Part shown: positions 1-13,000 of the stretch, piece by piece
How the letters are laid out: every line of letters starts with the position of its first letter
Numbering within the stretch: the stretch's first letter is position 1
Virus record (IMG/VR): IMGVR_UViG_3300010365_001248
Coordinates: 64,001-128,000 of that record
Source of the DNA: a virus
Lineage: Duplodnaviria > Caudoviricetes
Length of the DNA: 64,000 bases
Strand: one strand, 5' to 3'
Made by a program: the position numbers and the translations under genes
The notes under the pieces: model-generated
What the model saw: the letters and a program-made list of their open reading frames with translations, nothing else
Databases searched by the model: none
Told to the model about the DNA's origin: nothing

Positions 1-567
1 TGGATAGTTGATAATGGATATTTTGGTATTATTAAATTAGTTAGTATGGTGCACGATAAACATTTTGTTGTGGGTAAATAAGGTTAACTGCTGGGACATC
101 TTAAAGATATTTTCACTACAATTTATTCTGAAAAGATAGATGAAAGTTTAAAAAGAAAATATATTATTATTATAATGAATAGACAATCAGCAACGTATAA
201 CCTAAGTAATAAATTATTTATTATAAGGTTATATGCTCAGAGACTATCCGTCAATGGAGTAAGCTCCAAGAGGAGTTGAAAAGCCTTAATATAGATATTA
301 ATTCTTTATCTAGAAAAATGCTTTCTAGTAAATTAAAACAAATATCTATATAAGATATAGTCCGATCTTAATAGAAATATTAAGAGATATTACGGAATCG
401 GTAATATCGTAACACAAATGGAAATGTCCTGTGAATATCCTGATAAACCTGAATTTCAAGATTTTCCTAGAAGATTAGAAAATTTTATGATTGATGCAGG
501 TAAAGTTTTTGTTACTTCTTTAGATATGAAAGCAGTAGCAGAAGTAGGAAATCATTGGATCCACTAA
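1..567 (+). CDS. polA: DNA polymerase family A, C-terminal part (partial; exons 1-57 and 421-567)
   Basis: Joining 1-57 to 421-567 gives WIVDNGYFGIIKLVSMVHD|EMSCEYP...AEVGNHWIH*. This restores PolA motif C (VHDE) and the typical GxxW C-terminus. Stop TAA 565-567. Confidence 0.88.
58..420 (+). ncRNA. Group I self-splicing intron (IA2-like), no internal ORF
   Basis: Core elements P aactgctggga 86-96, Q aatcagca 185-192, R tcagagactat 237-247, S aagatatagtcc 352-363. P3 79-85/282-288 and P7 242-247/357-362. P1 pairs exon CACGAU with GUUGUG 67-72, with U.G at the splice site. P10 pairs CAUUUU 61-66 with 3' exon GAAAUG. Terminal G420. Confidence 0.93.
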
Positions 568-570
568 TAT

Positions 571-604
571 AAATGCCCTAAAATTAATCTTTTAGGGCAT
601 TTTT
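571..604 (+). terminator. Intrinsic terminator after polA
   Basis: Hairpin aaatgccctaaaa-ttaatc-ttttagggcattt followed by a T-rich tract. Confidence 0.8.
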
Positions 605-617
605 AATTTTATTTTAT

Positions 618-1559
618 ATGTTTTTTACTACAAATAATTTTAATAAAGTTTATACAACTTATAGTTCAAGTTGGGCTGCAAATGGAATAACAACTGGAAA
701 ATATATTTATGTTAATAAATGTGATTATGATATATTTTTAAAAAATCTTGTAAAACCGAAAGTTTCTTTAGATCCAGATAAAGATATTTTATGGATACAC
801 CCTTCTTGTGTATTACCTAGAACACAAGTTAGGACTAAATATAAAATTGCTTTAAAAAAAGAAAAAGCCACTGTTTTAGTTTATCCTGATGTAGCTGGAG
901 AATTATCTAGAAGATATACTAATGAATTTCAAACCTATATTAAAGATGATATATGCTGTTTGCTATATAGATCTTATGATAGGGATTTTGTTTTATTACC
1001 TGGTAATGAAAAATTATTAAAATCTGAATGTATTATTAGTAAACCTTTTAGATATTATGAATGTTGTCAAGAATTTGGTGAATTATGTCAGGATTTTTAT
1101 CAAAATGCTTCTTCAAAAAATTGGGTAAATGAAAGTGAAATTATAGATACTTTGGATTTACCTCCAATTTTACCTCAACATGTAGAGACTATAGTAAGTT
1201 TATTAAAATCTGATTCTAAACAATTAGCTTGGAAAATGTTATCAGAATTAAATTACAAAAGAGCTAGGAATTTTGTTAATCTTTTAATTCGTGATTTTGG
1301 TATAAATCGAATTAAAAAGAATGTATCTATTCAAGCTTTATTAGATTGTTGCCAGTCTTATAATTTAGAGGAATCTTCAGCTGAAGAAATTGACCTTATT
1401 TATCTTTACAAAAAAGAAAAACTTAAAAATGATTTTGAAGCTCATATAAATCGAATTAAAAATGAATTACATATTGATTTTAAATCTGAAATTAAATTAA
1501 CTTTTAATGCCTTAAATACAACTACTTCAATTATACTAGAAAATGAAAGCACAAATTAA
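618..1559 (+). CDS. Hypothetical phage protein (313 aa)
   Basis: Long uninterrupted ORF overlapping the thyX start; no motif recognised. Confidence 0.75.
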   Translation: MFFTTNNFNKVYTTYSSSWAANGITTGKYIYVNKCDYDIFLKNLVKPKVSLDPDKDILWIHPSCVLPRTQVRTKYKIALKKEKATVLVYPDVAGELSRRYTNEFQTYIKDDICCLLYRSYDRDFVLLPGNEKLLKSECIISKPFRYYECCQEFGELCQDFYQNASSKNWVNESEIIDTLDLPPILPQHVETIVSLLKSDSKQLAWKMLSELNYKRARNFVNLLIRDFGINRIKKNVSIQALLDCCQSYNLEESSAEEIDLIYLYKKEKLKNDFEAHINRIKNELHIDFKSEIKLTFNALNTTTSIILENESTN

Positions 1560-2328
1560 TGTTAAAGAATATAATAATGATTTTGGTTCTTTAGTAGCCA
1601 TTAAAAAATTTATTGAATTTTGTGGAAGACTTTGCTATAATAGTAGAGATAAAATAACTCCTAGTTCTTATGATACTTTTTATGATATGCTACTAAAAAG
1701 AGGTCATTTATCTCCACTAGCTCATGGCACAGTGTACTTAACTGTTTCTAATGATTCTAAATGGTTAGCTCAATATGATGAGTATATTCCAAAAGGAATT
1801 TGGAAAAGAAATCCTTGGATTCGAGTAAATCAAGACGCAGATCATCTATTTATAACTACAAATATGCGTTTTATTGAAACTTATAAATTACAAGATTGGC
1901 TACAATATATATCTAATCCTTGCTATATGCACACTTATAGATATACTTTTGAAATAGAAGCTCCTATATCTTGTACTAGAGAATTAAATAGACACGCTTA
2001 TTTACTTAATGGAATCTGTGAAAAATCTACTAGATATATTGATATGAGTGGTGATACTCCATATATTATTACAAAACCTGAAATTATGAAATATATGGAA
2101 ATGGCAACAACGTTTTATGATTTGGCTTTACTTGGTGGAGCTCAAAAACAAGAAGCCCGTGAAGTATTACCTTTAGGAACTATGTCTACGGCTATTTATA
2201 CAGCTTTTGAAGATGATTGGGAAGAAATTCTATCTAAAAGATCTTCTGATGCTGGTGCTCATGGACAACATCCAATGATTAATGAAGTTGCTAATTTAAT
2301 ATATAATTCTATAAAAGATAGAAAATAA
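1543..2328 (+). CDS. thyX: Flavin-dependent thymidylate synthase
   Basis: GRLCYNS, RGHLSPLAH, RELNRH...EKSTRY and AREVLPLGT motifs characteristic of ThyX. Confidence 0.88.
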   Translation: MKAQINVKEYNNDFGSLVAIKKFIEFCGRLCYNSRDKITPSSYDTFYDMLLKRGHLSPLAHGTVYLTVSNDSKWLAQYDEYIPKGIWKRNPWIRVNQDADHLFITTNMRFIETYKLQDWLQYISNPCYMHTYRYTFEIEAPISCTRELNRHAYLLNGICEKSTRYIDMSGDTPYIITKPEIMKYMEMATTFYDLALLGGAQKQEAREVLPLGTMSTAIYTAFEDDWEEILSKRSSDAGAHGQHPMINEVANLIYNSIKDRK

Positions 2329-2330
2329 AT

Positions 2331-2369
2331 ATAAATAGCCCTATTTGTTAATAGGGCTATTTATTTTTT
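2331..2369 (+). terminator. Intrinsic terminator after thyX
   Basis: Perfect 15-bp stem ataaatagccctatt/aatagggctatttat, 4-nt loop, T tract. Confidence 0.8.
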
Positions 2370-2413
2370 ATAATAAACAATATGATTGTAGCTATAATTT
2401 AATAACTACAACT

Positions 2414-2806
2414 ATGAAAAAATTAATATTTACTTTACTATTTATGTTTTCAATTTCTATAGCTCCAGCTATAGGAACTCATTACTATTATGAATGGCAA
2501 AAAGCCATAGGTATTCATCAAATTGAATTTGAAACTGACAAAGATTTAATAATTATTGATTTAGATAAAAATCAAATTATTACAGATTATACAACTTATG
2601 ATATAATAGAGCCTCCTACAAAATGGGCTTGGCATAAAAAATATAGAGAAAAATTTTGTATATTTTTATGTAATGATCAAAATTTTAATAAAGTCTTTGT
2701 TAAATTAATTAAATATACTAAAGATTTTTATATAATTAAAATAAATGATAATTCTTTAGATTATCCAATTAAATGTTATTATACTAAAAAGATATATCGT
2801 AAATGA
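2414..2806 (+). CDS. Putative exported protein with signal peptide
   Basis: ATG 2414 starts MKKLIFTLLFMFSISIAPA. The longer start at 2345 lies inside the terminator. Confidence 0.65.
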   Translation: MKKLIFTLLFMFSISIAPAIGTHYYYEWQKAIGIHQIEFETDKDLIIIDLDKNQIITDYTTYDIIEPPTKWAWHKKYREKFCIFLCNDQNFNKVFVKLIKYTKDFYIIKINDNSLDYPIKCYYTKKIYRK

Positions 2807-3150
2807 AAAAATTATTTATAACTTTATTTTCTTTAATATTATTTAGTTGTTCTGAAAATACTATTAATAAAACTCAATATTATCCAAAAATCAGAAAACC
2901 TATTATATTTAAAGATACTTTAATTTGTAAAGTAGTAAAAGATAGTTTTTCTATCTTTGCTACTAAAAATGAATGGTATTATCATACACAATATTATATA
3001 ATTATGTCAGATTCCTTTAATCAAGGTGATATAATTAGTTTAAAAAACAAAGATATATTTGTTATTGGTAAAATGGGATTAAAATATGGTAATATCTATC
3101 CTATTATTACTATTAAAGAAAAAGGGAATAGACGCAATATAGTTAATTAA
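2803..3150 (+). CDS. Putative lipoprotein
   Basis: MKKLFITLFSLILFSC: Bacteroidota-type signal peptide II with lipobox Cys; ATGA overlap with the previous gene. Confidence 0.7.
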   Translation: MKKLFITLFSLILFSCSENTINKTQYYPKIRKPIIFKDTLICKVVKDSFSIFATKNEWYYHTQYYIIMSDSFNQGDIISLKNKDIFVIGKMGLKYGNIYPIITIKEKGNRRNIVN

Positions 3151-3353
3151 TGTTTAAAAAAGGAGATTCCGCTATAATTTTTTATAAAGATTTAAAATTA
3201 GATATAACTATTAAATCGGTTAAAAAAGATACTTATATTATTTCTTTTAAAGATTATAGAAATTTAAAAAAGAAACTTGGAATAGGATTTATTCCTATTA
3301 CTAATGAAAAATTAGTAACTAAAAATTTATTACATTGGATATTAACGATATAG
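3150..3353 (+). CDS. Small hypothetical protein
   Basis: 67-aa ORF, TAATG coupling. Confidence 0.6.
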   Translation: MFKKGDSAIIFYKDLKLDITIKSVKKDTYIISFKDYRNLKKKLGIGFIPITNEKLVTKNLLHWILTI

Positions 3354-3547
3354 TAACTCTAGAAGAGTTAAAAAAAGAATTTAATAAACCTAATGTTATA
3401 GGTTCAGTTTTTGATACTAAAGATAATATCTGTTATGATCTAAAAGAAAATGTAACTTCTTCTAAAAAATTTTATTTAAGAAAAGTAGAAACTGCATTAA
3501 TTGTAGATACCTGGCTATATAATATTTTTATTGAACCTGTAGAATAA
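3335..3547 (+). CDS. Small hypothetical protein
   Basis: 70-aa ORF overlapping its neighbours in a tight operon. Confidence 0.6.
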   Translation: MDINDIVTLEELKKEFNKPNVIGSVFDTKDNICYDLKENVTSSKKFYLRKVETALIVDTWLYNIFIEPVE

Positions 3548-3708
3548 TGGATAAATGTCCTTTACAACAAACTTGTTTAATTCAATTAGTTCAAAAAGAA
3601 CACATTAGAAAATTAAATGAGAAATTAAAAGATATGCAAGCTCATATTGAACATTTAAATTTGACGCTTGATTATTTAATAACTAATTATAAAAATGATA
3701 AAAAATAA
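3547..3708 (+). CDS. Small coiled-coil hypothetical protein (53 aa; not in ORF track)
   Basis: TAATG coupling; MDKCPLQQTCLIQLVQKEHIRKLNEKLKDMQAHIEHLNLTLDYLITNYKNDKK*. Confidence 0.55.
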   Translation: MDKCPLQQTCLIQLVQKEHIRKLNEKLKDMQAHIEHLNLTLDYLITNYKNDKK

Positions 3709-5089
3709 AAATTTACATAAAGCTAAAAAAGAAAAAAATGATGAATTTTATACTCAACTGGCTGATATTGAAAGAGAATGTTATAAATATAAAGATCTTT
3801 TTCGGGATAAAGTTATTTACTGTAATTGTGATGATGCAAGGGAGAGTAATTTTTTCAGATACTTCTCTATGAATTTCGAGTTCTTTGGTTTGAAAAGACT
3901 TATTACAACTGGGTATAAAGCCAACGGACATGGAGTAGCTTTAATATATGAGGGAGATAAAAATGGAAATAGAGTTGTAGATGATGAGGAAATTCAGGTA
4001 GTCGAGTTAGAAGGTAATGGAGACTTTAGATCACCTGAGTGTATAGAGTTTTTAAAACAAGCTGATATCGTCGTTACCAACCCTCCCTTCTCCCTTTTCC
4101 GTGAATATGTGGGACTACTTATGGAATACAACAAGAAATTCCTAATTATAGGTAACTACAATGCTGTAACTTATAAAGAAATTTTTCCCCTTATAAAAAA
4201 CAATAAAATATGGTTAGGTATTCATTCAAATGTGACTATGGAATTTGCAATGCCTGATAGCTATCAAAAATATGATAGAATAGAAAATGGGGTAAAGATA
4301 GGTAAAGTTCCTTCAATTTGTTGGTTTACAAATTTACCTAACAAGAAACGAACTGAATCTTTGGATTTATATAAAAAGTATAATTCAAAAGAGTATCCGC
4401 AATACGACAATTACGACGCCATTAATGTAAACAAAGTGACTGACATTCCTATGGATTATGATGGTGTGATGGGTGTGCCTATCACTTTTCTGGACAAGTA
4501 TAATCCTAATCAATTTGAAATACTAAGTTCTAATGATTATCGAAAATCAGATTCTGTTCCATTCAAAGCACATGGACTTATAAAAGATAAAGATGGAGCG
4601 ATAAACGGCAAACCCACTTACGCCCGCATCCTCATTCGTCGCTTGATTATTTAATAACTAATTATAAAAATGATAAAAAATAAAAATTTACATAAAGCTA
4701 AAAAAGAAAAAAATGATGAGTTTTATACTCAACTAGCTGATATTGAAAGAGAATGTTATAAATATAAAGATCTTTTTAAAGATAAAATTATTTATTGTAA
4801 TTGCGATGATGCTAGAGAAAGTAATTTTTTTAAATACTTTTCAATGAATTTTGAATTTTTTGGATTGAAAAAACTCATTACAACTGGATATAAAGCTAAT
4901 GGACATGGAGTAGCTTTTATATATGAAGGAGATAAAAATGGGAATAAAGTTGTAGATGATGAAGAAATACAAGTAATTAATTTAGAAGGAGATGGAGATT
5001 TTAAATCCCCAGAATGTATAGAATTTCTAAAACAAGCGGATATTATTGTAACCAACCCACCCTTTAGCCTTTTCAGGGAGTATGTAGCC
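3665..5089 (+). repeat. Direct duplication of MTase upstream and 5' region (from 3665 and 4640, offset 975 bp)
   Basis: Both copies begin cgcttgattatttaataactaattataaaaATG and are identical for about 80 bp, then diverge mainly at synonymous sites. Confidence 0.9.
3695..4654 (+). CDS. Adenine-specific DNA methyltransferase, EcoRI family (copy 1, complete)
   Basis: KNDEFYT, IYCNCDD, GDFRSPEC, catalytic TNPPFSLFREY, CWFTNL, GVMGVPITFLDKYNP, YARILIRR. Confidence 0.9.
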   Translation: MIKNKNLHKAKKEKNDEFYTQLADIERECYKYKDLFRDKVIYCNCDDARESNFFRYFSMNFEFFGLKRLITTGYKANGHGVALIYEGDKNGNRVVDDEEIQVVELEGNGDFRSPECIEFLKQADIVVTNPPFSLFREYVGLLMEYNKKFLIIGNYNAVTYKEIFPLIKNNKIWLGIHSNVTMEFAMPDSYQKYDRIENGVKIGKVPSICWFTNLPNKKRTESLDLYKKYNSKEYPQYDNYDAINVNKVTDIPMDYDGVMGVPITFLDKYNPNQFEILSSNDYRKSDSVPFKAHGLIKDKDGAINGKPTYARILIRRLII

Positions 5090-5530
5090 TAGTTGATGAA
5101 ATATAATAAGAAATTTTTAATTATAGGATCTCAGAATGCTATTACATATAAAGAAATTTTTTCTTATATTAAAAATAATAAAATGTGGTTAGGAACTCAA
5201 TTAGTAAAAGAATTTATAACTCCATTAAAAACAATTACTGAAAAAACACAATATTGTAATGATCAAGGACAAATTATTCAAAAATTTGGAAATATTTGTT
5301 GGTTTACTAATTTACCTCATAATAAACGAAATGAAAGTATAGATTTATATAAAAAGTATAATAAAAATGATTATCCTACTTATGATAATTATGATGCAAT
5401 TGAAGTAAAAAAAGTTGCTGAAATTCCTATGGATTATGAAGTTGAAAGAATTGTAACAGAAGAGGAATTAAATAAACTTAATAAGTTAGGATTTACTATT
5501 GAAATACTTGAAGAATATGAAAACATATAA
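4670..5530 (+). CDS. EcoRI-family adenine methyltransferase copy 2, N-terminal subunit (one in-frame TAG at 5090-5092 read as Gln)
   Basis: ORFs 4670-5092 and 5093-5530 are contiguous and in frame. NPPFSLFREYVA(TAG)LMKY aligns with copy 1 NPPFSLFREYVGLLMEY. After IPMDY it ends in a novel tail and lacks the GVPITF C-terminus. Confidence 0.85.
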
Positions 5531-5726
5531 AATAAAAATTAAAAATCCTGCTATAGGAGTTCCTATTACATTTATGGACAAATATAACCCAGAACAATTT
5601 GAAATCATAGGAATGGGAGAAGATAATGGCATGGGACAATCAGGTGGAGTTTGGTTAGGAGGTTCAAAATCTTGTTTAGTGAATGGGAAAGCTGCATTTA
5701 AGCGTATTTTCATTCGTCATAAATAA
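5517..5726 (+). CDS. Stand-alone MTase C-terminal module A (69 aa)
   Basis: MKTYKIKIKNP-AIGVPITFMDKYNPEQFEII-variable-FKRIFIRHK*; homologous to the copy 1 C-terminus. Confidence 0.8.
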   Translation: MKTYKIKIKNPAIGVPITFMDKYNPEQFEIIGMGEDNGMGQSGGVWLGGSKSCLVNGKAAFKRIFIRHK

Positions 5727-5742
5727 CTAATAAAATATTATT

Positions 5743-5919
5743 ATGAAAACTTATAAAATAAAGATTAAAAATCCTGTGATGGGTGTGCCTATCACTTTTC
5801 TGGACAAGTATAATCCAGACCAGTTTGAGATCATTAGATTCAGAAAAGGGAATGATGATAAGGACTTGTCAATAAATGGTAAATGTCCATATTTCCGCAT
5901 CCTCATTCGTCGCAAATAA
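5743..5919 (+). CDS. Stand-alone MTase C-terminal module B (58 aa; not in ORF track)
   Basis: MKTYKIKIKNP-VMGVPITFLDKYNPDQFEII-RFRKGNDDKDLSINGKCP-YFRILIRRK*. Confidence 0.8.
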   Translation: MKTYKIKIKNPVMGVPITFLDKYNPDQFEIIRFRKGNDDKDLSINGKCPYFRILIRRK

Positions 5920-5936
5920 TTAATAAAAGCAGTAAT

Positions 5937-6416
5937 ATGAAAATAGAACTAGTAAAAACAAAGATATCAGAGTTATTTAGGGGTTACATAAATACTCAGG
6001 AAGATGGTGTAAAAGGTTATAACGGATTATTAAATATACGCCCACCATATCAGAGAGAATTTGTATATAAAGATAAGCAGAGAGATGCCGTAATAGAAAC
6101 AATAAATAAAGGCTTTCCACTTAATTCGATGTATTGGGTAAGAAATAGTGACGGAACGTTTGAATTACTCGATGGACAGCAAAGGACGTTATCTATTTGT
6201 TCTTACCTTAATGGAGAGTTCAGTATAGATGGAAAAGCTTGGCATAACTTATTTCCAGTAGAGCAGAATAAAATTAACGACTACGAATTAATGGTATATA
6301 TCTGTGAAGGAGATGAGGTAGAGAAGCTTGAATGGTTTAGAACAATTAATATCGCTGGAGAAAAGCTAACGGATCATCGAGAGAGTCATCAAGGAATATT
6401 TGGAGGCATAATCTAA
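5937..6416 (+). pseudogene. DUF262 (GmrSD/ParB-like) restriction-endonuclease gene, 3'-truncated
   Basis: IRPPYQREFVY, LLDGQQRT and WFRTINIAGEKLTD DUF262 motifs. The sequence switches to unrelated DNA at about 6376 and no C-terminal nuclease domain follows. Confidence 0.8.
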
Positions 6417-6435
6417 TATAAATATCCCGACGCGT

Positions 6436-7020
6436 ATGAAAATTGCACTGTTTTTCGGTTCATTCAATCCAGTCCATATCGGTCACGTCGCTTTGGCGAA
6501 TTATGTGGCTGAGTATGGAAATGTCGACAAGGTGATGATGATAGTGTCACCGTTGAATCCGTTGAAGGCAGGCAATACATTGCTTCCAAACGAAGTGAGA
6601 CTTAATATGCTTCGTAAGGCGGTGGAAGGGTACAGCAAGATTGAGGTTTCAGATGTTGAGTTTGGACTTCCAATTCCGTCGTACACATACGACACTTTGG
6701 AATATTTGAGACGAGAGCATCCTGAGCACGAATATATACTGCTGATGGGAGCCGACAATGTGGAGGTTTTCTCAAAGTGGCGTAACTATGATAAGATTCT
6801 TGAAAAGTATCACGTCATGGTATATCCACGTCGAGGATACACGGATGAACTGCCATATAATAATATGAGTAGAATCGAAACACCGATTATAGAAGTGTCG
6901 TCGACATTCATCAGAGAATCGGTGGAGAAGGGCAGAGACGTGAGGTTCTTTCTGCCTGGAGGCATCTACGACGATGTATGCAGAGAAGTAAGAAAAATGA
7001 AAAAAATTACAATAAAATGA
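6436..7020 (+). CDS. nadD: Nicotinate/nicotinamide mononucleotide adenylyltransferase
   Basis: FFGSFNPVHIGH (HxGH), SYTYDTL, LLMGADN, W116-like KWRNY, EVSSTFIR; full length; visibly more GC-rich than the phage backbone. Confidence 0.92.
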   Translation: MKIALFFGSFNPVHIGHVALANYVAEYGNVDKVMMIVSPLNPLKAGNTLLPNEVRLNMLRKAVEGYSKIEVSDVEFGLPIPSYTYDTLEYLRREHPEHEYILLMGADNVEVFSKWRNYDKILEKYHVMVYPRRGYTDELPYNNMSRIETPIIEVSSTFIRESVEKGRDVRFFLPGGIYDDVCREVRKMKKITIK

Positions 7021-7226
7021 AAGATAGAATTAGTGAACTTCTTGAAGAGGTTTCCAAGCTTTCAGCGGAGAATGCAGAGCAGTTGGAGGCACTTAGAATC
7101 AAGTATTTGAGCAAGAAAGGAGAGATTTCTTCGCTGTTCAATGATTTCAAGAATCAACAATTCCGCAATTTTCTATCTCCAACATCCGGGTTATGCGAGA
7201 ATCTAGAAGATTTAGTTGTGTTTTAA
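7017..7226 (+). pseudogene. pheS: Phenylalanyl-tRNA synthetase alpha subunit, N-terminal fragment (~46 codons) fused to unrelated sequence
   Basis: MKDRISELLEEVSKLSAENAEQLEALRIKYLSKKGEISSLFNDFKN matches the PheS N-terminal coiled coil (LExLRxxYLxKKG). Similarity stops at about 7154. ATGA-coupled to nadD. Confidence 0.75.
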
Positions 7227-7265
7227 TTAGAGTTTTAATTAGAGAATCTAGATCTAGATATCCCT

Positions 7266-7568
7266 ATCTATCCTAATCCTGCAACTGATGTTATCACTGT
7301 AACTAACGAGGGTGTTAACAGCGTGGCTGTTTACTCTGTAGCTGGTTCTTTGGTTGCTTCTTCTGAGTCTAACGTAGTTAGCGTAGCAAACTTGGTTAAG
7401 GGTATCTACGTTGTTGCGGCTAACACAGAGGCAGGTGTAATCACAGGTCAGATCATCAATAGAGGCTTTAATAAAACTATAGAAGAGTTGCAGAAAGAAC
7501 GAGCTCGGTTAATTGAGGAGCTTGATAAAATTGACGAAAATGGATGTATGGATACTATACTCAGATAA
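7266..7568 (+). pseudogene. T9SS (Por) type A C-terminal sorting domain fragment fused to a coiled-coil tail
   Basis: In-frame IYPNPATDVITV...VAVYSVAGSLV...LVKGIYVV matches the YPNP / YxxxG / LxxGxYxV signature. In-frame TAA at 7236 upstream and no ATG. Confidence 0.7.
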
Positions 7569-7646
7569 CATTACTAGGGATAGAATAGAGAAATTACAAC
7601 AAGATGAATTATAACTCAGGATTATTTATTTAAAAACTGAAAAACT

Positions 7647-7805
7647 ATGATAGTATTACTTTTAGCGATGTTTTTTGCAATTTGTTGTGGAATAGTTGCA
7701 AATAATAAAAATAGAAGCGTAGGTCTTGCTATATTTTGTGGATTTTTCTTTGGAATTTTTGCTTTGATAATTTATTTGCTGTTAGGAAAAAAAGAAAAAG
7801 AATAA
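7647..7805 (+). CDS. Small two-TM membrane protein (52 aa; not in ORF track)
   Basis: MIVLLLAMFFAICCGIVANNKNRSVGLAIFCGFFFGIFALIIYLLLGKKEKE*. Confidence 0.65.
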   Translation: MIVLLLAMFFAICCGIVANNKNRSVGLAIFCGFFFGIFALIIYLLLGKKEKE

Positions 7806-7982
7806 TGAAAAAAATTATTAAATTAATTATATTAATTTTATAATCATTCTAATAATTCTTCTTATGATTGCCCTTATAATTCATGAATATATTTAATAAT
7901 GATATTTGTCTTTTTAATAACAATTGCTCTGGGTATTCATATAATTAATTTATATTATAATATAATAAAGAAAAGAAATAAA

Positions 7983-8501
7983 ATGATAACTTTTGATAAT
8001 GTCATCACTAATTATAACTATGCTCTCGATACTCTTGATAAATATGATTATCAAAAGTTGATTGTAGAGCAAACTACAAATGAGGAACGTTTTCATGCGA
8101 CTTACGAAAATGCTATAGATGCCATAACTTGTATGAAAAACAAATTTGGCGGCAGTTCGCTGTTCGGTAATGAGAAAGATGATTCTTTCAAAAGTTCTAT
8201 CGGACAAATCTACCAGACATTTGGAGGTGTTGATCTCTATCCGTCTGTGGAAGAAAAAGCGGCTATGTTGCTATATCTTGTCACTAAAAACCATTCTTTC
8301 AGCGATGGAAACAAACGGATTGCTGCTGCGTTGTTTCTTTGGTTTATGAACAACAATGGTATTTTGTACGACGAGAATGGAGGCAAACGTATAGCGGACA
8401 ACACTTTGGTGGCTTTGACTTTAATGATTGCTGAGAGTCGTCCTGAAGAAAAAGATATTATAATAAAAGTAATTGTTAATTTAATAAATAAAAACAATTA
8501 A
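7983..8501 (+). CDS. Fic/Doc family protein (alternative start 7899)
   Basis: LYPSVEEKAAMLLYLVTKNHSFSDGNKRIAA contains the Doc-type Fic motif HxFxDGNKR. Confidence 0.85.
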   Translation: MITFDNVITNYNYALDTLDKYDYQKLIVEQTTNEERFHATYENAIDAITCMKNKFGGSSLFGNEKDDSFKSSIGQIYQTFGGVDLYPSVEEKAAMLLYLVTKNHSFSDGNKRIAAALFLWFMNNNGILYDENGGKRIADNTLVALTLMIAESRPEEKDIIIKVIVNLINKNN

Positions 8502-8849
8502 ATGAAAAAGAAAATTTATTTCTGCGTAGATTACGACACCTACGAAAGCTATAAATCTGACGCTTGGACTTCAATGTGTTATTTGTTTTCGATAGATTAT
8601 TGCAGCACTGACGAAATTATTAATACAGATCGTCTGGACTGTTGGGAAGGCTTGATAACAACTTCAATGGCACATTTATCGTTTGATTTGATAGATAAGT
8701 ATGATATCTATCTATGTTATAAAGATAAACGTGTGAAAATAGAAGAGCATATGGATTTAGGAAATAGCGATATGGATCTTCGCAGAGGGCATAGTATTTT
8801 CAAAATTTTTAGAAGCGGAATTTTTGATTATGTTTTAGGGCTGGAATAG
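8502..8849 (+). CDS. Hypothetical protein (ends at TAG; would end at 8861 under readthrough)
   Basis: 115-aa ORF abutting its neighbours. Confidence 0.65.
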   Translation: MKKKIYFCVDYDTYESYKSDAWTSMCYLFSIDYCSTDEIINTDRLDCWEGLITTSMAHLSFDLIDKYDIYLCYKDKRVKIEEHMDLGNSDMDLRRGHSIFKIFRSGIFDYVLGLE

Positions 8850-8851
8850 AG

Positions 8852-9331
8852 ATGGGGATAATAATAAAAACGCTAAAAAAGGAGTTCACTTTTGAATTTA
8901 TTACATTCAATGGTGAAAATATGTCAGAAGTATTATCATTTATTTCACTGAGGCGATTAAATAGTAGTGGAGATATTTTCGAGGATTTTATGAAACGCCC
9001 AGAAGATATTCCTAATTTAGACGAAGAAGAAATGAAAAAATGGTGGACATCTACTGGCACTATTACGAAAGAATTTAGATATAATCAAGAAAAGGAAATT
9101 AATTCACATAGTCTTAGCAATATGCCGCTATGGAGAAAAGATGAACTATTTAAAGTGGATATGAAATTAAATAAATCTGGTTATATGAGATTGGTATTTT
9201 TCAAAAAGGGAGATACTATTATATATTGTGATAAAATGGAACTAGATGATGAAGCTAATTTTACTATCTTAGAAGGATCTATGACTGAAGAGGAAATTAA
9301 AAAATATATAGAAGATCATTACGGTATATAA
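8852..9331 (+). CDS. Hypothetical protein
   Basis: 159-aa ORF. Confidence 0.65.
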   Translation: MGIIIKTLKKEFTFEFITFNGENMSEVLSFISLRRLNSSGDIFEDFMKRPEDIPNLDEEEMKKWWTSTGTITKEFRYNQEKEINSHSLSNMPLWRKDELFKVDMKLNKSGYMRLVFFKKGDTIIYCDKMELDDEANFTILEGSMTEEEIKKYIEDHYGI

Positions 9332-9386
9332 AAATCTTTTGAAGATTGTAAATCAGTAATTTGGCTAAAAGATTAATATTTTTAAT

Positions 9387-9638
9387 ATGACAGATAAAAC
9401 AAAGCACAGTTATTTTGAGTATGTTTATCATAGAGGTATAGAACCAATGTGGAAAGTTGGTGATAAACTTGCCTATTATGAATTTTGTACAAATTATGAA
9501 GGAGAACATAATTTAGGTACGATTATAAATATTGAATTAGATGAGGAGTGTGATGATTGGGTTTATACTTTTGATAATTTTAATCAAGAATTTGAAGAAG
9601 ATTTATTGAATTCTGCAACGTATATAGATAAAAAATAA
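9387..9638 (+). CDS. Small acidic hypothetical protein
   Basis: 83-aa ORF. Confidence 0.6.
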   Translation: MTDKTKHSYFEYVYHRGIEPMWKVGDKLAYYEFCTNYEGEHNLGTIINIELDEECDDWVYTFDNFNQEFEEDLLNSATYIDKK

Positions 9639-9645
9639 ACTTTTT

Positions 9646-9962
9646 ATGACTAAAAAGAAAAACGTAAATGGCTATACAAAATCCATTAAAAGGCTTTTGA
9701 GAAATATAGATGGTGGGATTATGGCTATATGCTTGATTTTGAAAAAGCTATATGGGCGGACTGGCTGGACAAATATTCTAAAAAAGAATTAACCCATGCA
9801 CTAGATGAATACTCAGATAGACGTGCTGCAATTGCTAAGTTGGCATTAAGGCTACTTGAAATATATGAATATGAAAATTCAGATTCTAAAATTTAGGTCA
9901 ATAATTTAAAAAATATAAAGAATCTGAAGAATTTGAAGAAGATGATGATTATTAATAAATAA
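9646..9962 (+). pseudogene. Possible degraded hypothetical gene
   Basis: Protein-like frame KAFEKYRWWDYGYMLDFEK... (9690-9896, TAG; TAA 9960-9962). It is preceded by an in-frame TAA at 9687 and an out-of-frame ATG at 9646. Confidence 0.3.
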
Positions 9963-10044
9963 CCCCTAGCACTTTTTAGTGTTAGGGGTTATTTTTTTCG
10001 TACACCCTATAACTTTTTAGTTATAGGGTTATTTTTTTCGTACA
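9957..10044. terminator. Tandem pair of intrinsic terminators at the convergence of early (+) and late (-) regions
   Basis: Hairpins aaataacccctagcact-tttt-agtgttaggggttattt (9957-9998) and ccctataact-tttt-agttataggg (10005-10028), each followed by ttatttttttcgtaca. Confidence 0.85.
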
Positions 10045-13000
10045 TTAATCTTCACTAGGAACATAAGAAGGTTTAACTAATGTTCTAGTTAATGCATTAG
10101 TATCAATTAAGAATTTTCCTACATCTTGTTGTCCAGTTAATACCTAATAAGCATCACGGGCTAAATCTGCAGTTTGTTTAATACTGAAAGCATTCCAATC
10201 AGATACAAAAGAAATTGCTGTACCAATAATATTAGCATCATCTGCTACAAAATTAGTAGTTCTAAAGGCTAAATTTAATAAAGCAGCTTGAGCTCGATTA
10301 GATAAATCTGGCTATTCTTTAGCTAATTTAGAAGTTTCTGTAAGATAATTTTTAACTATCATACCTAAAAGACCTAAAACTAATACTGTCATTAAATCAG
10401 CTAACCATAATCTAAAATTAAACATATAAGTATAATATAAATGTTCATTTAGAACACCATCAACAGTACAAAGTTCTTTTAAAGTTTTAGATGGATGAAA
10501 AAGTTTAGAATACCAAGGAACTCCCTCATATTTAATTATTTGAGCTAAAGTCAAGAAAATACCTTCTTGAATTAAACCTTTCATTCTCATTACTTTTACA
10601 TCACTAGCTTCAGCATCATCACTCCAAACAAATCTATTAGGATTTATTGTACCATCTTCATATTTAGCATAAACTAATGATATATTAGGATCACTATCTT
10701 TAGTTACGAAATCCCAATAAACTTCATTCTTTTTATTTCTATTACCAAAATATAGATTCTTTTTAGCGGACATATAAGTTCTCATTTGACCTATCAATCC
10801 TCCTAACCATTTACTCAAAAAGAATGATTTTTTACCATTATCATAATATCCATATAAAGTATCACCTAAGGATTTCATAGACTCAATTTCAGCATTAGAA
10901 AAAGCTCTAGGTATAGGTTTAGGTTCATTAACATTTAATTCAAATTTATTACCATCTTTATTTAATTCTTGAATTAAAGAAATATAACGTGATAAAGCTT
11001 TTTTATATTCAGGACTATCTTTAGAAACATTATCTTTAAATAAAATTTCAAAACGTTTATCCTTTTTCATATCATACTAGATAACATTATTTTCATCTAA
11101 AGAATAAGCGTCATAAGCTCCTTCATGAATTAATCGGGCAATAAAAATAGTCATTCTATTATAAAAGTCAGGTCGTGAAGTAGTATAAAAAGCAAATCTA
11201 GAAAAATTAAATATGGAATAATTTTTACTATATTTCATATTTTCTACATACTGATCAATATCCATATCATTTACTCCATATAAAATATTTAATTGATCAA
11301 CTAAACTACTTTCTATAGAAGTTTTTAATTGAGAAGCAGCTACAATTAATTCAGCACGTTTATACTCTTCTTCAGTAAATGGTGCCTCACTTAAACCAGA
11401 TACTATAGCTTTTAATTTTGCTCCTTTTACAATACCATCAGCTCTTTGTCCTAAATATTGAACTGGAGAAAAAGCTAATGTCATATAAGAAGCAGCTTTA
11501 GCTAATTTACCTGTAATTTTTTGTAATTTTTTCTAATTTTCAGTGCCTAAAGAGAGGTTATTAATATTTCTTTTAACCATTTCCTCAATGACATTTAATT
11601 CAGATTCAAAATTATTTTCAGCAGATTCACCAAAATTAACTGAGGCTTGTTGTAAACCTAAATAGGCAGCTTTAATAATTGGCATTATTTCAGTATAGGT
11701 AGAACTAGTAATTTTAGCTTGTTCATACTAACCTAAAATTTGTTCTATACTAGTTTCATAAAAAGCTGTATCTCCATATTTAGCCCTCAAAGTTTCAATT
11801 AATTCTACTCTTTCAACTTGATTCTCACTTTGACTAAATTGATTTACTGTTTTAAAAATACTTTCTGAATTTTTATGAATTAAATCAGCATTAGTAGTAG
11901 AAGAAAAGAATTTATTCCAATATTCATTAAAATTAGTAAAAGGTCTCATTTTACTCATAAATGTAGAAAACCATCCTTGCTCAGCTATTTGAGAAGACAT
12001 GTTTGGCTACATTAAAGGAACTTGTAGATATTGTTTAATTCCTAAAGATAATTTAGTTTTAATAGTTTCCTCAGATTCATTAAATCTAATTTTATTTAAT
12101 TTGATAAGAACTGCTTTTAAAAATTCTAATTGAGCTTCTTGAATATTAGCAGGAAAGTTCTATCTAGTTGAATCAAAAGGATTTACAAATAAAACATCAC
12201 TAAAATCACTAGTTACATAAGTTAGATCTTTAAATCTATCATCAGGATTTGAAAAGAAACCATATGATTTATTTAAATCTTGATCTAATTTCTAAACTAA
12301 ACGTCTATTTTCAAAAACAGAATTCATTAATTTAGATCGTAATGTTTGGGTAGTATTATTAATAATTTTACTAACTTCATTAGGAACATAACCTTTAAAT
12401 TGTCCAGGATTATCAGTTTGATTACCTGAAATACCTTCAGAAAATATATTTGTTAAACCCCCATCAAAATAATCTGAAGTACCTCTTAAAACCTATTTAT
12501 TTTTAAAACCGTATAAATCTTTTAAAGTTTGAGTAGTTTCAAAATATAATAAATATAATTTATCATTTGGTGTATAAGATAAAATACGTTTAAATTTTCT
12601 TTCATTACCTTGTTTATCAATAGTTAAAAGATGAGGGTATTTTTCTTCTAACATATGAACAAATTCTTGTAATTTATCAATAATTAATTGAGTATTTTCT
12701 CCACTCTATTTAAATCGTGTTAAATCATTAAAAGTATCAGAAAATTGACTAATAAGTTTTTTCTATTCATTAGATTTTAAATTTTCATATACACAAATTA
12801 AATTATCAAGTGCATCACTAATTTCAAGAGAACTTATAAATGGAAAATTAGTTAATAAATCATTCTAAATTTTATTATGAGATTTATATAAAGTATGTTT
12901 AAAAGAATATTCTATTTGATCCATTGGAGCTGAAAAATAAACACTACTACCTCCATGAGGACTAACTACTGCCATATTATTAATTTTAGCATCTTTAAAT

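Follow-up and report, generated by a model that had tools for sequence, protein, structure and literature searches.

A split phage adenine methylase with C-terminal modules that probably form a growable array of cassettes exchanged with Bacteroidales hosts

Introduction

Why would a phage carry, one behind the other, a complete adenine methylase gene, a second methylase gene that stops before its C-terminal part, two small open reading frames (ORFs) that each resemble such a C-terminal part, and half of a nuclease gene? This question is raised by a locus in a stretch of phage DNA of 64,000 nucleotides (nt), referred to here as the window, which comprises bases 64001-128000 of the 163.9-kb IMG/VR virus record IMGVR_UViG_3300010365_001248 (94% complete). 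An earlier note made from the sequence alone (the original prediction) had taken the locus for an expandable methylase array that acquires specificity segments from the restriction-modification (R-M) operons of its hosts. Here, the locus was compared with related loci in other phages and in host genomes; contigs used for comparison carry L numbers. We consider it probable that the locus is the phage version of a mobile two-gene R-M unit, made up of an EcoRI-family N6-adenine (m6A) methylase and a DUF262-HNH nuclease and common to phages and their Bacteroidales hosts, in which a catalytic core and modules bearing variable region 2 (VR2) form a growable array whose cassettes are exchanged with hosts.

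Results

The methylase is split at a conserved site

The methylase copies in the window (Table 1) consist of conserved blocks that alternate with two variable regions, VR1 (2 alleles) and VR2 (3 alleles), just as had been described from the sequence. Copy 1 is unsplit and matched positions 1-344 of the 345 positions of the PF13651 profile, above the curated cut-off. Copy 2 is interrupted, and its core lacks the C-terminal part. Both copy 1 and the copy 2 core contain the catalytic amino-methylase motif IV (NPPF), in which N, P and F were invariant across 71 homologues.

The copy 2 core ends with the first three elements of an insertion domain, an extra segment of 36 residues, and the fused methylase (P0006) of phage L015 carries the extra segment as an in-frame insertion domain. 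Module A starts within the end of the core ORF, overlapping it by 14 nt in the +1 frame; its start codon lies at 5517 and not, as first placed, at 5514. An 11-residue leader is followed in it by a conserved block, then VR2 allele A and lastly a conserved tail. Module B has the same leader with two synonymous differences, and its start codon stands at the position that the nuclease start codon occupies after a methylase gene. Together with its 3' spacer, module B matched module 4 of phage L099 at 189/194 positions, and it was 94.8% identical to the 3' end of the L007 methylase gene. All module ORFs in the window are intact.

What had been called a phage-type leader turned out to belong to the methylase itself, as the last strand of the insertion domain at the conserved split site. 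In an AlphaFold (AF2) model of the fused methylase (predicted local distance difference test score, pLDDT, 86), the insertion consisted of strand-helix-strand, then the split, then a strand, with pLDDT of about 90 in that part. The split falls in the hairpin preceding the last strand, and this last strand is the leader. On this model, the leader would most simply serve in docking, by supplying the missing beta strand of a small docking domain on the core.

The same arrangement was found in other phages. A leader-pattern search of IMG/VR gave one useful contig, L091, an unrelated small phage with a core and one module that share the out-of-frame overlap with one base different. In L088, a free-standing HNH_3/NUMOD homing endonuclease gene (462-1019) lies exactly between core and module; as a separate observation, many small database ORFs with a short prefix before the leader are modules downstream of such homing endonucleases. 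L085 and L102 contain a core, then two leader-bearing modules, then an intact nuclease gene. In the L102 locus (positions 1-3000 of a 137.7-kb contig), a second, fused methylase of 356 amino acids (aa) lies between the two modules and the intact nuclease, so that this locus mixes split and fused genes like the window, in reversed order.

The largest array came from a leader-pattern scan of Joint Genome Institute (JGI) metagenomes, which gave L098 and L099. These represent a small phage with a 287-aa core and five tandem modules, each with a start codon and leader, and the modules of L099 carry VR2 alleles 1, A, 4, B and the L015 type. L098 and L099 were identical at 1546/1549 positions over the array; L098 is from the same metagenome as L009, one of the contigs of the present phage. 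A stray sixth leader lies in L099 (reverse complement, about 1150-1200) after a VR2 cassette tail and just upstream of the core start codon, and it is another recombination scar at the leader.

The cores of the split lineages were only 51-55% identical (L085 versus this phage, 55%), with the split site, the tail and the leader retained; identity of the leader across these lineages was 10-11 of 11 residues (L085 versus this phage, 10/11). Furthermore, a search with module A returned 159 short PF13651 C-terminal ORFs, many of which start with the same leader and whose VR2 is diverse. A single methylase gene followed by a full nuclease gene was present in L006 and L008, which have the same gene order, and L007 likewise has a single methylase. 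VR1 and VR2 alleles are combined differently in different phages, which makes the methylase a combinatorial mosaic. The locus therefore varies among relatives, with 1, 2 or 5 modules behind one core, as an expandable array had been expected to do. A reading of copy 2 as a frameshifted pseudogene and of module B as a remnant was dropped, as L091, L085, L088 and L098/L099 all have the same break and L015 has the fused form. These comparisons indicate that copy 2 and module A make up one split gene of a conserved kind.

VR2 cassettes recur in host methylase genes

Downstream of the methylase genes, a block of host chromosomal DNA containing nadD is 99.1% identical to UBA3743, which names the Bacteroidales UBA3743/UBA3844 lineage as the host and shows that host DNA was recently captured at this locus; other metagenome-assembled genomes (MAGs) labelled Paludibacteraceae were 84-89% identical over the block. 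Four of the five MAGs that match the nadD block carry a chromosomal methylase gene followed by a DUF262-HNH gene, with a 135-aa gene between them in two cases. In addition, the C-terminal module was matched in 74 of 201 sampled host-family genomes. The pairing of an EcoRI-family methylase with a DUF262/HNH endonuclease, cited by the original prediction as established, is a real gene pair in the hosts and phages examined here (L006, L008, L015 and the MAGs).

The host loci differ from each other in the same cassette. The loci of UBA3743 and UBA3844 (L057 and L055) were at least 97% identical except at VR2, an island of ~100 nt. VR2 was likewise the sole divergent island in a second, independent MAG pair (L056/L058), and inside VR2 the identity over both pairs was 33-65%.

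Every phage VR2 allele has a host counterpart. For allele 1, positions 4466-4642 of copy 1 form a 177-nt exact match to UBA3844, in genes that are otherwise 67-77% identical. For allele A, positions 5589-5718 of module A form a 130-nt exact match to the host-type contig L092 (97.1% over 170 nt), which has the same backbone and downstream nuclease start as the host loci. Allele 4 is present in UBA3743 and recurs in two phages, L008 and L099 (module 3, 96.8% identical to UBA3743 over 156 nt), and allele B was found in 17 of the 201 host-family genomes at 77-91% aa identity. Counterparts of module B and allele A in the species-representative host genomes reached at most about 81% nt identity, with no recent donor among those sampled. 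Taken together, these matches support the view that VR2 cassettes are exchanged with host chromosomal methylase genes by way of the conserved blocks on either side.

In GC content, the window modules (0.37-0.39) rank with the highest 4-7% of windows of this phage, which has an AT-rich genome (GC 0.27). Uptake of a host cassette by a phage would be favoured by selection, and the GC content of the cassettes is host-like; the exchange could nevertheless have run in either direction, as L092 has an AT-rich, phage-like tract (GC 0.275) beside VR2, which hints at transfer from phage to host.

Copy 1 is a mosaic joined to the resident gene at a 3-nt overlap

The 5' end of copy 1 equals the resident gene, its VR1 is allele a, and 4466-4642 carries VR2 allele 1. 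The original prediction had described copy 1 as starting identical to copy 2, becoming more GC-rich and ending at a CGC (4640-4642) joined to a second copy of the upstream sequence, and the comparison bore this out. The two upstream copies are identical at 30/30 positions, with CGC at 3665-3667 forming one side of the duplication junction; 3665-3800 and 4640-4775 agree at 134/136 positions and the sequence beyond at 258/320. GC content was 0.32 at 3800-4388 and 0.39 at 4465-4642, compared with 0.24 in copy 2. The exact blocks common to copy 1 and module B are also real, measuring 42 nt (4465-4506 = 5775-5816) and 19 nt (4624-4642 = 5895-5913).

Near-identity to host loci, as expected of segments acquired from host R-M operons, was found for VR2 (exact matches of 177 nt in copy 1 and 130 nt in module A) but not for the GC-rich front of copy 1. 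Positions 3703-4185 matched the core of phage L099 at 93% and L015 at 89%, but the host genes examined at no more than 73%. A host origin of 3790-4470 was sought in 401 host-family genomes, and the best match, also for 3800-4388, was 69%. The GC-rich front of copy 1 thus appears to derive from another phage and not from the host. Copy 1 would have been added upstream in a separate event that left the 3-nt CGC junction.

We ruled out that the duplication is an assembly artefact. Contig L005 from ENA (99.8% identical) spans positions 1-5775 of the window, and the JGI contig L009 (99.84% identical) spans 4285-12000, a range that takes in both modules, the half nuclease gene and the nadD block. 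All three independent assemblies of this phage show the same single fixed order at the locus. Furthermore, the overlap at the junction is merely 3 nt, so that a k-mer misjoin could not have generated it.

The array appears to grow at the start codon of the nuclease

The spacers between modules indicate how units may be added. Those after module A and after L099 modules 1-3 match the methylase-to-nuclease spacer of L006, and those after module B and L099 module 4 match the corresponding spacer of L015; in each case the next module starts exactly at the position of the nuclease start codon. The start region of the nuclease and the start region at the split site both contain ATGAAAA. One unit would accordingly extend from a split-site start to a nuclease start, and units would be joined by illegitimate crossover at ATGAAAA between the nuclease start that follows one methylase and a split-site start belonging to another. 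Because such a crossover joins these two start sites, each unit would still carry a methylase-to-nuclease spacer. These features support the view that the locus is an array able to grow.

Cleavage by a homing endonuclease such as that of L088 may drive this growth. Homologues of the L088 enzyme were absent from the window, with weak NUMOD-like matches elsewhere in the genome, and there is no endonuclease gene between the core and module A.

The nuclease gene was severed by host DNA

The 5' half of a DUF262 gene follows module B, as originally noted, and it matched only positions 1-151 of the 372 in the PADLOC REase_II model. Its full-length relatives match this model (PDLC03418) at E values of 1e-123 to 1e-128, an annotation-level assignment. 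The truncated ORF continues into foreign sequence to 6416. It had been thought that capture from a host R-M locus left out the toxic half of the nuclease; this did not stand, because phage relatives keep the gene whole and the nadD insertion cut it here separately. The gene is intact in phages L006, L008, L015, L085, L088 and L102 as well as in hosts, and the remaining half was 93.6% identical in nt (142/147 aa) to that of L015 compared with 65-80% to host genes. Nor was the near-identical host match expected for 5775-6375 found, module B reaching at most about 81% nt identity among the species-representative host genomes sampled and the nuclease half 65-80%.

Homology to the end of L015 resumes at 7257-7337 (92.6%); the nadD block and about 100 nt have therefore replaced the remainder of the nuclease gene and a 197-aa gene. 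To judge from these alignments, the half nuclease is the phage lineage's own gene, severed by the host nadD fragment, the phage's own nuclease is dead, and the locus is now methylase-only. The nadD gene itself is intact and might serve the phage.

What the array may do

If the modules work as their layout suggests, the core would pair with either module via the leader to give methylases of different sequence specificity, and together with copy 1 the phage DNA would be pre-methylated against three VR2 variants segregating in hosts. A bolder version, which we put forward tentatively, is that the locus encodes a combinatorial multispecific m6A methylase: one core would serve a growing set of separate recognition subunits, docking by a complementing beta strand and built from the VR2 alleles of the host population. 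Its corollary for the hosts would be that the constant DUF262-HNH nuclease takes its specificity from VR2 of the methylase, as in Type III systems, and the widespread Bacteroidales unit would then be a distinct kind of R-M system.

Several observations weigh against such a function. The nucleases of both host pairs are unchanged across the VR2 swap (99.2% and 98.6% identical), which leaves two options: specificity is not set by VR2, or target recognition by the nuclease depends on the methylase. A sequence search of the PDB found no relative of the methylase, and Foldseek against the PDB gave weak generic Rossmann methylase matches only, with none for the C-terminal half, leaving VR1 and VR2 unplaced on a known recognition domain. 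The copy 2 core contains an in-frame TAG at 5090-5092, whereas two neighbouring genes on the + strand (8502-8849 and 9729-9896) apparently terminate at TAG; given these neighbours, the core may be produced only in the presence of the phage suppressor tRNA, if it is produced at all.

On a different reading, copy 1 is the sole working methylase, and copy 2 and modules A and B are the dead remains of former gene replacements at a recombination hot spot. Copy 2 indeed contains the TAG and is not a single ORF, the adjacent nuclease gene is plainly broken by an insertion, the junctions are microhomology joins, and L099 shows damage at the 3' end of its last module and a stray leader before the core. 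Dead sequence, however, would not be expected to keep the split site and leader in lineages whose cores are 51-55% identical, nor to recur as intact arrays of two and five modules with start codons. L006 and L007 have Gln codons at the position of this TAG, which occurs in a TAG-recoded genome: on the late (minus) strand TAG is a sense codon, as ORFs of at least 150 codons span 61.2 kb compared with 25.7 kb under the standard code, and a 90-nt tRNA with the anticodon CTA is encoded at genome position 157152-157241, outside the window. The ratio of nonsynonymous to synonymous substitution rates (dN/dS) was 0.09 for the core versus L006 and 0.075 for module B versus L007, although these values include the branch of the intact partner, so that a recent loss of function would escape notice. 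Ratios of 0.08-0.09 point to purifying selection on both ORFs, each of which is intact. We consider it unlikely that the array consists of scars only.

We also doubt that the array is expressed with VR2 having no part in setting the methylated sequence, as a diversifying surface loop that contacts, for example, the nuclease or an inhibitor. The constancy of the host nucleases (99% identical when VR2 changes) fits such a loop, as does the high conservation of the nuclease family across Bacteroidales (76-86% identity), and in the AF2 model VR2 is a short loop of low confidence. On the other hand, variable cassettes between conserved blocks in methylases are usually recognition elements, and are established as such in Type I HsdS, Type III Mod and the multispecific C5 methylases; moreover, identical VR2 sequences in host and phage are what protection by mimicry predicts. 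Very unlikely is a silent cassette store, in which the modules donate by gene conversion to one expressed position and VR2 switches from generation to generation, like antigenic variation or hsdS cassettes. Conserved flanks of about 90 nt do surround each VR2, and recombination has produced every combination of the alleles among phages and hosts. Every module, however, has a start codon and leader of its own as well as a stop, the start of the first module overlaps the core stop as in coupled genes, no recombinase ORF was found in 3500-8600, the modules share direct repeats only with no inverted repeats at the locus, and the order is fixed in three assemblies of this phage.

Discussion

The reading that we prefer, a growable array of a core and VR2 modules with cassettes exchanged between phage and host, has partial precedents. 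In the Bacillus phages SPR, phi3T, rho11s and SPbeta, multispecific cytosine-C5 methylases are known (Trautner et al., 1996, cited in PMC12707154). They share with the present locus tandem exchangeable recognition modules, by which one core is set against several host restriction systems. All of their recognition domains lie in one polypeptide, whereas here the methylase is an N6-adenine enzyme and the modules are separate small ORFs with a putative docking leader. The cassettes of the present phage also match the host's own methylase alleles, unlike those of the SPR/phi3T type, and the resemblance is one of function, not of membership.

Shuffling of a variable cassette between conserved blocks, with a constant nuclease partner, is also seen in the allele swapping of Type I hsdS and Type III mod genes. 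Those genes belong to another methylase family and have another organization; here there is no invertase or phase-variable repeat, and reliance of the nuclease on the methylase is only hypothetical. A virulent lactococcal phage reportedly captured the LlaI methylase domain from plasmid pTR2030, a finding attributed to Hill et al. in 1991. As in that case, a phage would gain part of a host R-M methylase by recombination and so escape the system. The LlaI case concerns a single captured domain, whereas here the cassettes appear to have been exchanged repeatedly and stored in an array, with the same cassettes occurring in several unrelated phages.

In T4-like phages, genes are split by free-standing homing endonucleases, and endonucleases drive segmental amplification of anti-defence loci (PMC2988022; PMC13096335). 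The likeness lies in the endonuclease at the split site of L088, in both halves being intact ORFs, and in tandem amplification of what would be an anti-defence function. Unlike the T4-type loci, the present one has no endonuclease, and its amplified units are not identical repeats but vary in sequence. Literature searches turned up no account of an N6-adenine methylase that is divided between a core and an array of separate modules mirroring host alleles.

If the modules work as proposed, an arms race would be legible in the sequence, with hosts varying one cassette and phages storing the matches, and the host strains that a phage can infect could be predicted by comparing VR2 repertoires. A core with a module of about 60 aa would likewise offer a compact scaffold for engineering adenine methylases of chosen specificity. 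The comparison also raises the question of how, in a very common Bacteroidales R-M unit, the nuclease stays constant while the cassette of its methylase changes.

Other features of the locus and the genome

Table 1. Positions of the methylase locus and the adjoining host insert in the window.
Feature	Position	Strand	Remarks
Upstream sequence, first copy	3665..3694	+	Overlaps 3' end of preceding 53-aa ORF; 30/30 identical to 4640-4669
Copy 1, unsplit EcoRI-family N6-adenine methylase	3695..4654	+	319 aa, intact, no TAG; PF13651 425 bits
Junction CGC (4640-4642) and second copy of upstream sequence	4640..4669	+	Substitutes the natural end of copy 1; host homology ends exactly at 4642
Copy 2 catalytic core, apparent N-terminal part of split methylase	4670..5530	+	286 codons; VR1 allele b; PF13651 positions 1-298; 94.6% nt identity to L006
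C-terminal module A	5517..5726	+	69 aa; PF13651 positions 279-345; 219/226 to L099 module 2
Spacer 3' of module A	5727..5742	+	Homologous to methylase-to-nuclease intergenic spacer of L006
C-terminal module B	5743..5919	+	58 aa; VR2 allele B; PF13651 positions 278-344
Truncated DUF262-HNH nuclease gene	5937..6376	+	First 147 of about 372 codons, no HNH domain; GmrSD_N match
Host chromosomal insert	6376..7154	+	779 nt; short gene tail, complete nadD, first ~45 codons of pheS; 99.1% nt identity to UBA3743, 98.2% to UBA3844

The methylase locus sits in a block of + strand genes alongside a Thy1 thymidylate synthase gene and small ORFs. A megablast search of 3000-8600 against GenBank phages gave no match, and a search of IMG/VR with the Thy1 protein found no relatives.

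The segment 7155-7840 lies between the nadD block and the resumed phage backbone. An 81-aa ORF (7323-7568) gave a sub-threshold Por_Secre_tail match only and is followed by a 52-aa membrane peptide. Further downstream, a Fic/DOC-domain gene (7899-8501) is conserved in L006; in the host-type contig L092 a different Fic gene lies between the methylase and nuclease genes.

Across the whole genome, some GC-rich palindromes are strongly avoided: GCGC has 0 sites, and the observed/expected ratio was 0.14 for GGCC and 0.27 for GATATC. AATT-type palindromes are not avoided (observed/expected 1.0), which speaks neither for nor against a target of the AATT type.

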